Assembly: GCA_951406725.2 (NCBI GenBank)
Contig: OX597827.1
Location: 6,634,001 to 6,698,000, forward strand
Length of the DNA: 64,000 bases
Origin: Octopus vulgaris
Lineage: Eukaryota
Direction: 5' to 3'
Shown: positions 17,277 through 54,160 of the stretch, piece by piece
Numbering within the stretch: position 1 is the first letter of the stretch
How the letters are laid out: every line of letters begins with the position of its first letter
Position numbers and translations under genes: made by a program
The notes under the pieces: generated by a model
Told to the model about the DNA's origin: nothing
Database searches by the model: none
Seen by the model: the letters and a program-made list of their open reading frames with translations, nothing else

Positions 17277-17875
17277 CTATTTTTGGTTTAATTTTGGTTT
17301 TAGAATTCTTATTAAGTATTTTTCTTTTGCCTTTCGTAGATGTATATTTTCATAATATATTTTGTAAAATGAGAATATTTTAAATTTTCCATTTGCACAG
17401 ATATCCAGATGTTCACTGCATAGGACATTCTGAAGAGATGAATTCCTAATTTGCTGTTTATGCATATTTACATGGCTGGTCAGTTTCCTTCCTGCCTCCC
17501 CAATGTAGTTTTCATTGCACTGTGGGCATGTGATGCAGGAGATGAGGTTTTTCGTTTTGCAATTCATGTTTGCATTCACTTTTAATTTCCCATTCCTGAA
17601 TCGTTTGGTTGCTCCTTGCTCAATTAATTTGCATGTCCCACAATGGGAGTCTTCACAGTTGGTTAATTGCATCGTTTCTTCTTCAAATGTGGATCTCACC
17701 TTTGTTAGGAGTCCCTTGAGGTTAGGTGGTTGTCTTCGACTGTTGATAATATCTGAATTTTTAATTATTCATTGGAGATTTGGTGATTGATGTAGAACTG
17801 GGAGGTATCGTTTGGCTGAGTGCAGGATGTTGTTTCTAGGATTGTGGGTGACTCTACAAATGGTATATTAGTATT
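17277..17875 (-). pseudogene. Penelope-like element ORF C-terminus with GIY-YIG endonuclease
   Basis: CGTC...CKTKNLISCITCPQCNENYIGE...HKQQIR...EHL...KEKYLIRILKPKLN; upstream in-frame THNP...SRRQPPNLKGLL with one stop. Confidence 0.88.
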
Positions 17876-47969: not shown

Positions 47970-49245
47970 CGTGCTATGGGTTCTTTCCTACTGCATGGCA
48001 CTTTCGGCATATCTTCTACTATAGCCTCAAGCTACCTAATGCCTTGTGAATTAATTTGGTTGACAGAAACGGCATAGAAATGTGTCTTACACATGCACAC
48101 ACAAATACACACACACACACACAGTGTATAAATATGTCTTACATGTGTGCATGCATGCACACACACATACACACACACATACACACTCACACACACACAT
48201 AGATGGATGTGTGTTTTGCATTTGTCCCCTACTAGTGCTGGACAACCAGTGCTGGTTTGTTTACACCCCTCTAACTTAATGGTTCACCAAAAGAGATAGA
48301 ATAAGTACCAGACTTTAAAATAGAATAAGTACTGGAGTTGGTTTGTTTCACTAAGCCTTTCAAGGCAGGGCCCCAGCATGGCCACAGTCCAATGAATGAT
48401 ACAACAAAAAGATAAAAGGTATGTAAATATAGCTGTGGTTGTGTCATAAGAAACTTGCTTCCCAACCACATGATTCCAGGTTCAGTCCCACTGAGTGGCA
48501 CCTTGAGCAAGTGTCTTCAACTATTGCTATATACTATAGAGTGACCAAAGCCTTGTGAGTGGATTTGGTAGATGGAAACTGAAAGAAGCCCATCATGTAT
48601 CTGTGTATGTGTATGTGTTTGTCCTTCACCACTGCTTGGCAACTGGTGTTGGTGTGTTTACATCCTCATAACTTACCAGTTTCGCAAAAGAGATTGATAC
48701 AGTAAGTAACAGGCTTTAAAAAAAATGTACTGGGGGTCGACTAAAATTTTTTCAAGATGATGATGCCCCAGTATGGCAGTAGTATGATGACAGAAACAAA
48801 TAAAAGGAAAGCAAAAATAAAAGGTAAGTAAATATAAAGGCACAGAAGTAAGCTGTGTGATAAGTAGCTTGCTTACCAGCCACATGGTTCTAGGTTCAGT
48901 CCCACTGCGTGGCACCTTGGACAAGTGTCTTCTACTATAGCCTTGGGCCAACCAAAGCCTTATGTGTGGATTTGGTAGATGGAAACTGAAAGAAGCCCGT
49001 CGAATATATGTATGTATATATATATATATGTGTGTGTGCATGTTTGTGTGTCTGTGTTTGTCCTCCTAACATTGCTTGACAACCGATACTGATGTGTTTA
49101 TGTCCCTGTCACTTAGCGGTTTGGCAAAAGAGACCGATAGAATAAGTACTGGGTTTACAAAGAATAAGTGCTGGGGTCGATTTGCTTGACTAAAGGCGGT
49201 GCTCCAGCATGGCCGCAGTCAAATGCCTGAAACAATTAAAAGAGT
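47970..49245 (+). mobile_element. Three consecutive family A SINEs of different divergence (~47970-48420, 48430-48830, 48838-49245)
   Basis: Three head-to-tail repeats of head/central/tail motifs. Confidence 0.8.
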
Positions 49246-50010: not shown

Positions 50011-50131
50011 ATTTTAAAAAATAAATAAAAGATAAACAAATGATAAAATATACTTATTTCAGACCAAAACTGAAGAGTAATGTTTGAAACAAAAAATTAC
50101 AGCATTGGAACCAGATATATTATAAGGTATT

Positions 50132-50499
50132 GTGGAGGCGCAATGACCCAGTGGTCGTAGGATCGCGGTTTCAATTCCCAGACTGGATGTTGTGAGTGTT
50201 TATTGAGCGAAAAACACCTAAAAGCTCCACGAGGCTCTGGCAGGGATGGTGGTGATCCCTGCTGTACTCTTTCACCACAACTTTCTCTCACTCTTACTTC
50301 CTGTTTCTGTTGTACCTGTATTTCAAAGGGCCGGCCTTGTCACTCTCTGTGTCACGCTGAATATCCCCGAGAACTACGTTAAGGGTACACGTGTCTGTGG
50401 AGTGCTCAGCCACTTACACGTTAATTTCATGAGCAGGCTGTTCCGTTGATCGGATCAACCGGAACCCTCGTCGTCGTAACCGACGGAGTGCTTCCATCC
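50132..50499 (+). mobile_element. Family B SINE (body X, tail B1) with TSD attataaggtatt
   Basis: TSD at 50119-50131 and 50500-50512. Confidence 0.92.
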
Positions 50500-50637: not shown

Positions 50638-51198
50638 ATTAGGTTTTCTGGAAAGTTCTGAGCGTTTTAAAAATAAATTTTTTAATGAACACACCTTACA
50701 TTGAACACACCTGAAGTGTAACACAGTTAAAGCTTTGGCATTGCTTGAAGTGATAGTGCATCTCTTCTTTGTTCCTGACTGAAAATAGATTTGTCTTTCA
50801 TTCCAGTTACCCTTTATTGACATTTGAAATGGATAACCAAAAATTTCATATTTGTGTTGTGATGCTTTTCTTTTTTTAAAAAAGGAGAAAATGCTGCAAA
50901 AACTTGCAAAAACATTTGTGAAATTTATGGTGATGATGATACAGGTGAATCAATTGTTCAAAGGAGATTTGCAAAATTTAAAACTGGAGAGCTTAGCTTG
51001 GAAGATGACAATTGCAGTAGAAGACCTTTCAAATTGGATGAAGATGTTTTGAAGGCAAAAATTGAAGAAAACTCAACTAGAGAACATGCAGAGAAGTTGG
51101 AAGTTTCTAGAAGTACGGTTCATGAACACCTAGTGAAGCTAGGATACATTTCTCACTGTAAGGTATGGGTCCCTCACAAACTCTCAGAAAAGAATTAC
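50638..51198 (+). pseudogene. Mariner element 5' half (TIR region plus N-terminal HTH of transposase), truncated
   Basis: ATG 50829; frames give FKKGENAAKTCKNICEIYGDD...RFAKFKTG..SLEDD..SRRP...STVHEHL..LG...WVPHKL (mariner WVPHEL motif). Confidence 0.88.
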
Positions 51199-51876
51199 AC
51201 ACTCTATTAACGGTGAAACAATTGTATAGGGTTAATCTATTTTTTCGTTATTTTTCATTTGTCCTGCTCGCTTACAATCTTAGCGCGTTGAACTAATTCT
51301 TGAGAACAATTCTTTAGTGGTGGATTCCCTTCGTGGATCTATATCTAGTGTTAGAGTGGCCACATGTGGACTCTCTCATTACTTGTATTAATAATTTTTA
51401 CTGTATCCCAGTTTTTATACGCTAGGCCACTTGGTGTTTTATATTGATGCTATTAATTAATATTCAATTTTTTTCACCCTTATTGTGATTTTAATTATAA
51501 ATTAATATGTTCTCAAACTGGCAGTAAATTACTTGGGTAGTATTTACATCCAGGTTTAGCATACGAGAATGAGGATATTTGAACGTAACTGCAGATATAA
51601 TCGGCTGTGCCATTCACCTCTATTCGGCTTCGTGTGGATGTTGGCATTCGACTCAGCAAATTATATTTTTTTGATATACTTTACTGAAGATCCGAAAATG
51701 ATTGTGTAAGTAAAATTACACAATCTATTAACGGTGAAACAATTGTATAGAGTTAATCTATTTTTTCATTATTTTTCATTTGTCCTGCACGCTTACATCC
51801 TTGGCGCGTTGAACTAATTCTTGAGAACAATTCTTTAGTGGTGGATTCCCTTCATGGATCTATATCTAGCATTAGA
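51199..51876 (+). mobile_element. Non-coding ~521-bp-period direct-repeat element with hammerhead ribozyme (retrozyme/PLE pseudo-LTR-like)
   Basis: ~155-bp direct repeats 51199-51355 and 51719-51876; ribozyme spans the start of the second repeat. Confidence 0.75.
51673..51758 (+). ncRNA. Type I hammerhead ribozyme candidate
   Basis: Stem I acttta(51678-83)/tagagt(51748-53); CTGAAGA 51684-90; stem II ccg/cgg enclosing a 10-bp hairpin gattgtgtaa/ttacacaatc; GAAA 51736-39; palindromic stem III caattg; GUA cleavage triplet ending 51747. Confidence 0.75.
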
Positions 51877-52741
51877 TATATACACACATAGAAACACACA
51901 TACATGAATAAAAGAAATTGTAAATGCACTTGGAACCTTTAAGAATATTTTTTTACATTTACTTAACTGACTTCACAATTTTATGCTTTTCAAAAGTCGT
52001 GAGAAATAGGAGGGTGCTGGATTTATGCCATACTCATGCAGAATACATGAAATTCTGCTACATCAAACAGGTCAAAAAAAGGAATGTTCACATTGTGGTT
52101 TCCTTAATTCTTTTACCATATTCCTGTGGAATCAGTCTTATCCAACCCATTCCAAAGGACCAAAGGACCACAAAATAATAATTATCAAAATTGTTTATCT
52201 TTAAGTAGATCTTTTTTACTCTACTTTCATATAGAATACTTTTAAATTGACTCAAAATGCATTTAGAGTTAAAGTTCAGGTTGATATGATTATAATAAGC
52301 TTGTTAGTCATTTACAGATACCAAAAACATGTTTTGTGAAGTCAAAAGGTCGACCTAACTCATGTGACTTCTAGAAAATCGTTTTTCTTCTGATGCTTTT
52401 GTGTAGAGATCCATCTAATAATTCAGTTAAACTAATTTCAGCATAATGCTTTCAGAATTACTTTAAAATTTAGTAATTTGTGTCAAAGTTTATATGTCAA
52501 CTTTGAGTGTTCTGCTTTTATAGTTTAATGTTGAGTTTTCTTGTATTTTATTTCAGATGGAAGTTTTAAATCTTATATAACAGAAGTCATTTCAGGATTT
52601 CATAATGTGTAAAAAAAAAAAAAAGAATTCATTGGATTTCTTAAATGTTACTTACACTGACTTTTCTTTCCAAAATGTACTTCATTTCTCTAATAGGACA
52701 AACTTCGAAAAATGAATTTAATTTTTTCCACATATAGAATT

Positions 52742-53072
52742 GTGGAGGCGCAATGGCCCAGTGGTTAGGGCAGCGGACTCACTCGTGGTCGGAGGATCGC
52801 GGTTTTGATTCCCATACTGAGCGTCGTGTGTGTTTATTGAGCAAAAACTCCTAAAGCTCCACGAGGCTCCGACAGGTGGTGGTGGCGACCCCTGTTGTAC
52901 TCTTTCGCTACAACTTTCTCTCACTCTTTCTTCTTGTTTCTTGGGTAATGCTGCAATGGACTGGCATCCCGTCCAGGTGGTGGTGGGGGGGGAACACATA
53001 TGCCACAGAAACCGGGAAACCGGGCCCATGAGCCTGGCTAGGCTTGAAAACGTTGCATAAATAAAATAAAAA
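52742..53072 (+). mobile_element. Family B SINE (body X, tail B2) with TSD acatatagaatt
   Basis: TSD at 52730-52741 and 53073-53084. Confidence 0.92.
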
Positions 53073-53773: not shown

Positions 53774-54160
53774 AGGCGCAGAAGTGGCTGTGTGGTAAGT
53801 AGCTTGCTAACCAACCACATGGTTCCAGGTTCAGTCCCACTGCGTGACATCTTGGGCAAGTGTATTCTGCTATAGCCCCAGGCCGACCAATGCCTTGTGA
53901 GTGGATTTGGTAGACGGAAACTGAAAGAAGCCTGTCGTATATATGTGTGTGTGTCTGTGTTTGTACCCCTAGCATTGCTTGACAACCGATGCTGGTGTGT
54001 TTATGTCCCCGTTACTTAGCGGTTCGGCAAAAGAGACCGATAGAATAAGTACTGGGCTTACAAAAGAATAAGTCCCGGGGTCGAGTTGCTCGATTAAAGG
54101 CGGTGCTTCAGCATGGCCGCAGTCAAATGACTGAAACAAGTAAAAGAGTAAAAGAGAGTA
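53774..54160 (+). mobile_element. Family A SINE, full length
   Basis: Matches A unit. Confidence 0.9.

Follow-up and report, generated by a model that had tools for sequence, protein, structure and literature searches.

A hammerhead-bearing non-coding repeat superfamily of Octopus vulgaris with a Penelope-like insertion footprint and a splice-donor consensus inside the ribozyme

Known retrozymes and the octopus copy

Metazoan non-LTR retrozymes from coral, mussel and axolotl are non-coding, low-GC tandem units that each carry a type I hammerhead, with a stem III that consists of two pairs and a tetraloop, and a predicted circle that is self-paired, and the octopus repeat described here resembles them in these respects (PMC7229834; this and the other papers are cited from excerpts of their texts). 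It also shares a U-U at the base of stem II with the axolotl retrozyme HHR_Amex2 (PMC7229834). Its superfamily has longer units than known retrozymes, 493-546 nt versus about 170-400 nt (PMC7229834), and a survey of vertebrate retrozymes gives units of 51-972 bp (preprint 10.64898/2026.07.22.740005, in excerpt). Further differences from known metazoan retrozymes are a stem II of 40-45 nt that contains a splice-donor consensus, and insertions with two fixed 3' ends in (TA)n together with 5' inversions. According to the excerpted part of a review, the repeats of non-LTR retrozymes show no motif that would indicate their mobiliser (PMC7761336). Neptune-clade Penelope-like elements (PLEs) are also close, since they have partial tandems, inverted 5'-truncated copies and a (TA)n target as the octopus family does, and PLE pseudo-LTRs likewise hold a hammerhead and intron-like signals in the repeat (PMC4209133, PMC8557442). 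Unlike PLEs, the octopus unit has no ORF, forms arrays of up to 13 units and has a non-minimal stem III.

It has been proposed in print that PLEs mobilise retrozymes from circular RNA, a hypothesis based on co-occurrence and pseudo-LTR similarity. The general class and the PLE link are already in print; what is added here is the insertion footprint, which this superfamily itself displays, the very young star-like arrays, and the donor embedded in the ribozyme. None of the literature listings searched reported hammerheads in octopus or a donor-in-ribozyme arrangement, though supplements of PMC7229834, of the preprint and of PMC4209133 might contain such, and in the main text of the O. vulgaris repeat annotation a word search finds no mention of ribozymes (PMC13282606).

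The element copy in the window (the whole 64-kb stretch of DNA that was analysed) is, judged from its sequence, an ageing member of this non-coding superfamily. We consider it highly probable that the copy is a 5'-truncated non-LTR retrozyme of 1.3 units, likely mobilised in trans by the RT and endonuclease of a PLE, probably of the Neptune clade. This reading is based on the covariation of the ribozyme stems, on 3' ends that are fixed and lie in (TA)n, on 5' ends that are random, on inversions and arrays, and on the absence of a linked ORF. The unit is short and non-coding and has no LTR features, so that by sequence comparison the element has the testable genomic traits of a non-LTR retrozyme, with cleavage and circles predicted. 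No ORF with RT and GIY-YIG domains lies between pseudo-LTRs in the units, and the element is not an autonomous PLE. The coordinates of the features are collected in Table 1.

Table 1 Features of the element copy and its junctions, in positions of the window
Feature	Positions	Strand	Basis
Mariner relic, 5' half, HTH_48 match; 3' half absent	50664-51196	+	mariner-copy comparison
Whole element copy, 1.3 units, 5' truncation inside stem II	51193-51876	+	repeat and family comparison
First repeat, partial tandem, pseudo-LTR-like	51193-51355	+	direct-repeat comparison
Hammerhead 3' half (stem II 3' strand, GAAA, palindrome, GUA), predicted cut after 51226	51211-51232	+	
Predicted cut-to-cut 521-nt monomer (putative circle)	51227-51747	+	cut sites read from sequence
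Hairpin (51353-74), then family 3' end site A (about 51388)	51353-51388	+	71 of 143 family ends
Family 3' end site B (about 51498-51508)	51480-51508	+	58 of 143 family ends
Complete type I hammerhead, predicted cut after 51747	51678-51753	+	sequence, folding, descriptor, covariation
Apical hairpin extending stem II, 10 bp	51700-51725	+	folding, alignment
GTAAGT, 5' splice-site consensus within stem II	51706-51711	+	conserved as GTRAGT across families
Second repeat, 94% identical to first	51714-51876	+	direct-repeat comparison
Acceptor-like CTATATCTAG, AG at 51868-69	51860-51869	+	sequence, family comparison
Degenerate TA/CA microsatellite at element 3' junction	51877-51906	.	read from sequence

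The first-pass annotation had reported a direct repeat of about 155 bp with no ORF in the unit, and both points stood: the repeat measures 163 nt, slightly more than reported, with a spacing of 521 nt, and the longest ATG ORF of the monomer has 46 aa on the plus strand and 44 aa on the minus strand. The copy carries one complete and one half hammerhead motif and stops 33 nt before the usual family 3' end A. Its junctions turned out differently from the earlier description, which had the element inserted into a mariner relic at an 8-nt microhomology, aattacac. Mariner and element have only AATT (51193-96) in common, because nine of nine related mariner copies run on past the junction point from GAATT to G, so the ACAC belongs to the element itself. 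The insertion into mariner is not a clean one either, as mariner is found only at the 5' junction and the 3' flank is a TA/CA tract; a mariner continuation looked for downstream of the element within the window was not found. Six-frame reading around the element gave no convincing coding exon of a host gene.

Structure and covariation of the hammerhead

The core and stems of the complete hammerhead could be read directly from the sequence, as the first-pass annotation had read them. Stem I pairs acttta (51678-83) with tagagt (51748-53), the core consists of CTGAAGA (51684-90) and GAAA (51736-39), stem II begins with t-ccg (51691-94) and cgg-t (51732-35) and has U-U at its base, and stem III is the palindromic caattg (51740-45), with the predicted cut after A51747. 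This is a type I core, CUGANGA/GAAA/UH with an open stem I, in which U4 is changed to C in some families. Stem I of the present copy has a U-G at a position that is C-G in most copies. The half hammerhead in the first repeat was also recovered, and the two predicted cut positions delimit the 521-nt monomer as proposed. By analogy with the model in the excerpted part of PMC4209133, the element copy may adopt a double-hammerhead geometry.

Two computational checks had been suggested for the ribozyme, and they gave different answers. The hammerhead descriptor had a single match in the window, at this hammerhead, and no match in 30 of 30 dinucleotide shuffles. Rfam gave no hammerhead hit, even at E<=10, and the long stem II is the probable reason. 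MFE folding of the hammerhead recovered stems I and II (z = -3.1). Among five isolated ribozyme regions, three had an MFE no better than chance (z -1.6, +0.9, -0.3), and several of the five MFE folds differ from the active fold. Circular MFE of the 521-nt monomer gave z = -2.3 (25 shuffles), and three younger units gave -8.4, -4.4 and -5.8 (25 shuffles each), with the antisense strands scoring too.

Stem covariation and core conservation among genomic copies, which the first-pass annotation had named among its checks, were seen in 28 diverged copies for stems I and II (alignment A2, without L171, an unrelated match, and L025, which has no pattern match). The core was invariant apart from N7 and U4/C4, and both partners change in each of the six stem I pairs and each of the four basal stem II pairs; stem III was uninformative because its pairs never vary. 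Paired cells made up 90.7% of the stems compared with 78.5% after shuffling, and none of 500 shuffles was as high, although relatedness of the copies alone can lift the observed value above this control; slid-register controls gave 23-48% of cells. At the base position of stem II, 9 of the 28 copies have G-C, 2 have A-U and 1 has G-U, and in the other 16 the two sides do not pair; U-U is thus only one of the possibilities. The U-U had been called unusual; it is indeed present here, but it has a precedent in HHR_Amex2 (PMC7229834) and is not fixed in the superfamily.

Insertion footprint, tandem arrays and candidate enzyme

To describe the insertions, the best 40 of 1,642 first-look candidates for the element's own family in the 2.8-Gb genome were scored, which gave at least 69 matches, mostly with 84-95% identity; by this identity the family appears to be old. 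The strict ribozyme pattern had 93 matches genome-wide and 0 in the control. Ends were counted at 87 loci, leaving out L029, which overlaps with L004, and L020, whose flank duplicates that of L017 (L017 and L020 on C5 are one insertion with common flanks in opposite orientation, that is, a local duplication). Of the 143 3' ends, 71 lay at site A, some 160 nt beyond the cut, 58 at site B, some 280 nt beyond it, and 14 elsewhere; a TA-rich flank followed 68 of the site-A ends and 42 of the site-B ends. The 5' ends were scattered with no fixed position, and both orientations were present at 50 of the 87 loci, which indicates inversions. Most copies are shorter than one unit and no array of more than 2 units was found among the 87 loci, while tandem units with a complete hammerhead each occur in L002-L005. 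Among the traits described for PLEs are partial tandems, inverted 5' copies and (TA)n targets (PMC8557442), and the own family has this footprint of partial tandems, 5' inversions and a microsatellite target.

The superfamily is much larger, with about 3,000 hammerhead motif matches genome-wide and families that are 48-96% alike. Relaxed patterns gave 451 matches (control 0), 3,278 core matches (reversed control 21) and, with the donor included, 2,961 matches compared with 5 in the control; these numbers count motifs, not insertions, and the three patterns are not nested. A sister family of 546-nt units was reached through a weak match at L067; it is laid out in the same way, and its two 3' ends are homologous. 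The tandem arrays that had been proposed as a check were found in young sister families, where 3-13 hammerheads each follow with a period of 493 or 534 bp; the units are about 99-100% alike, the arrays terminate in TA-rich sequence at one or other of sites A and B, and an inverted 5' arm is frequent. The longest array, which is also among the youngest seen (L209, G000:C1:40930500-40940400), has 13 units of the 534-bp family plus an inverted 14th hammerhead. Analysis of 35 units of this family showed that within-array differences occupied 24 private and 2 shared columns, with a mean of 0-3 substitutions within arrays and 13.4 between arrays, and that the inverted arm of L214 carries variants of its own array. 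Star-like, mostly private variants are what repeated copying of one circle predicts. Further hammerhead lineages with a stem II of 40-70 nt were noticed (L201-L208, L034/L067, L038, L243:547), and the hammerhead of L243:547 also holds GTAAGT. A long stem II seems to be common in this genome.

Could a PLE supply the enzyme? A genome search with PF01541, in which the best 150 of 6,136 candidates were scored, gave at least 148 matches, many of them in 781-aa open frames. The intact 781-aa ORFs have RT and GIY-YIG domains with a CxxxxCxxC linker, and a CxxC-type linker has been described for Neptune and Nematis PLEs (PMC8557442). Autonomous PLEs thus co-occur with the retrozyme units in the same genome, and one of them (L063) has identical pseudo-LTRs with (TA)n on its flanks. 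The young intact Neptune-type PLE of L061-L063 and L069, with its 781-aa ORF and an upstream ORF of 330-480 aa, is a candidate enzyme donor; no canonical hammerhead was found in this family by the descriptor and no likeness of its 3' end by eye. BLAST and a family profile were run against 40 + 20 GIY-YIG loci, and in these 60 loci no pseudo-LTR homologous to the unit was found, only a separately inserted sister-family fragment in L067 and a weak match of E = 0.037. We therefore infer the PLE partner. Eight long-stem hammerheads without GTRAGT, examined as possible partners, had no ORF and no profile match. For a direct test, the 534- and 493-nt units are ready substrates and the intact Neptune-type ORFs are candidates.

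Hammerheads were also seen in the 3' UTRs of PLEs (L068:4306, L070:1740, L245:1637), with U-U at the stem II base, a GUAC palindrome and a core of CCGAAGA in L068 and L070 and CTGAAGA in L245. The CCGANGA core, U-U base and palindromic stem III of the GIY-YIG-linked PLE (L068/L070) are as in the unit.

The earlier proposal of a non-autonomous, PLE-type hammerhead element is strongly supported by the covarying stems, the insertion footprint, the sister arrays and the lack of a linked ORF. That the copies are instead 5'-truncated pseudo-LTR debris of an autonomous PLE, and not a self-standing family, would fit the PLE-like footprint and the many copies under one unit, but we regard it as very improbable: copies longer than one unit always enter the unit again and never an ORF, and PLE 3' UTRs gave no profile match. 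Among 60 copies chosen by ribozyme pattern alone, all 60 run upstream within the unit. PLE ORF fragments lie near 11 of 90 family loci, none contiguous with the unit, and from these coordinates only we judged them to be separate insertions; no PLE ORF match was found at 40 sister loci or at 20 other hammerhead loci. The arrays might also have formed by unequal crossing-over after insertion or from linear multimeric transcripts, with no circle needed. A recent local amplification burst would yield array-specific variants as well, one column of L209 is common to 4 non-adjacent units, and local amplification is favoured in the excerpted part of preprint 10.64898/2026.07.22.740005. This origin is nevertheless unlikely in our view, given that the 3' ends of the arrays are fixed at the same two sites and their 5' ends are random and in many cases inverted, that inverted arms are themselves tandem (L213, L214), and that the variants are mostly private and not nested.

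Splice-site signals in the ribozyme and the proposed cycle

The long stem II noted in the first reading was borne out, but that reading had missed the conserved splice-donor consensus inside it. With the acceptor-like CTATATCTAG, of which a second copy lies at 51339-51348, this donor implies a 164-nt intron in the element copy that spans the cleavage site. In 14 family representatives, which are about 50-90% alike, the donor was present in 14 and a YTAG acceptor in 13, at a distance of 144-164 nt; 7 of the 14 had been selected with the donor in the query, and the other 7, chosen without it, all carry it. The only 6-mers held in place in at least 12 of the 14 were the donor block and GAAACAATTGT. 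When the donor was not required, GTRAGT was found in 92 of the 100 first matches listed (34 of 42 loci), the other 8 being unrelated lineages, and in 31/36, 55/64 and 19/23 ribozymes of three unselected sets. Its invariance in alignment A2 is partly by construction, because 17 of the 28 rows were selected with a donor-containing pattern; the remaining 11 all have GTRAGT. The donor alternates between GTAAGT and GTGAGT, and its sequence is kept while the pairing register shifts. By these comparisons, GTRAGT in stem II appears to be under sequence constraint.

Contigs of three runs that are guessed to be RNA (low cover, contigs only) contained no splice joint, and unspliced contigs cross the donor (run X2) and the acceptor (run X3). 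Unit-length joints that go back occur in runs X1-X3, but tandem DNA gives the same joints, and that these runs are RNA is only a guess. Parts of the element were seen in runs X1-X19 with four organism codes, with contigs examined for X1, X2, X3 and X18 (organisms A and B), 4 of 24 runs, in which no splice joint was seen; no run is on record as RNA, so these matches say nothing on expression. No precisely spliced genomic copy was found, and of 6 young 534-bp arrays among the matches listed, 5 have GG in the place of the acceptor AG. Splicing is therefore not required for spread, as the acceptor is missing in the youngest arrays and no spliced form was found.

What the donor is kept for can be read in several ways. 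We think it likely that GTRAGT belongs, as the 5' splice site, to an intron that was inherited from a PLE pseudo-LTR, and is now kept mainly as a signal for U1 binding, and we favour this over an active splice-or-cleave switch. The switch, which would be an addition to the main model, is a rather doubtful one: splicing would remove the cleavage site, because the implied intron holds GAAA, stem III and the cut site, and only unspliced RNA would circularise and transpose. It would account for the donor and acceptor counts, including the representatives chosen without the donor, for the two positioned 6-mers, and for the GTAAGT/GTGAGT alternation under a shifting register. PLE pseudo-LTRs bear 5'-UTR introns whose retention is unexplained (PMC8557442), and in D. 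virilis Penelope the intron adjoins helix I with its 3' end (PMC4209133), whereas in the octopus unit it is the donor that lies inside stem II. If the switch were true, unspliced RNA as the only circular template would explain intron retention in PLE-type retroelements. Against it are the missing splice joint in the low-cover contigs, the unspliced contigs over donor and acceptor, and the GG of the youngest arrays; the lack of precisely spliced genomic copies is predicted by the switch too. The A/G change at +3 is also tolerated through G-U wobble, and no clear branch point was found. About as tentative is the reading that GTRAGT serves RNA structure or protein binding, for instance a tertiary contact or recognition by the RT, and not U1. 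Loss of the acceptor leaves the donor in place and part of the donor pairs within the apical hairpin of stem II, as such a role would have it, but GTRAGT matches the full U1 consensus, including R at +3, and YTAG lies at an intron-like distance in 13 of 14 representatives. Through the donor within the ribozyme, a connection between the retention of introns by PLEs (PMC8557442) and control of the ribozyme can be put to the test.

For the favoured PLE-driven retrozyme we infer cleavage, circles and the identity of the enzyme in the following cycle. More-than-unit transcripts would self-cleave after GUA/GUC, as monomers or as dimers through the stem III palindrome, and the released monomers of about 500-550 nt would be ligated into circles. 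A PLE endonuclease would nick a (TA)n tract, and the AT-rich end left by the nick would serve as primer at one of two AT-rich sites that lie about 160 and 280 nt beyond the cut. Copying by the RT would then go on for 0.3 to 13 turns of the circle before a random stop, in many cases with an inverted second arm. Against the cleavage step stands that, in the excerpted part of preprint 10.64898/2026.07.22.740005, only 1 of 9 predicted retrozyme dimers was cleaved in vitro.

Other repeats were also seen in the window. SINE-like dispersed repeats flank the locus (50122-50308 and 52732-52941; 49040-49151 and 53943-54000). On the minus strand, 17280-17768 holds an open frame like a Neptune linker and GIY-YIG start (CEDSHCGTC...NLISCITC), a PLE relic, and a second, older superfamily fragment lies at 909-1126, with two inverted arms that run into a TA/TG tract (profile E 3e-16).
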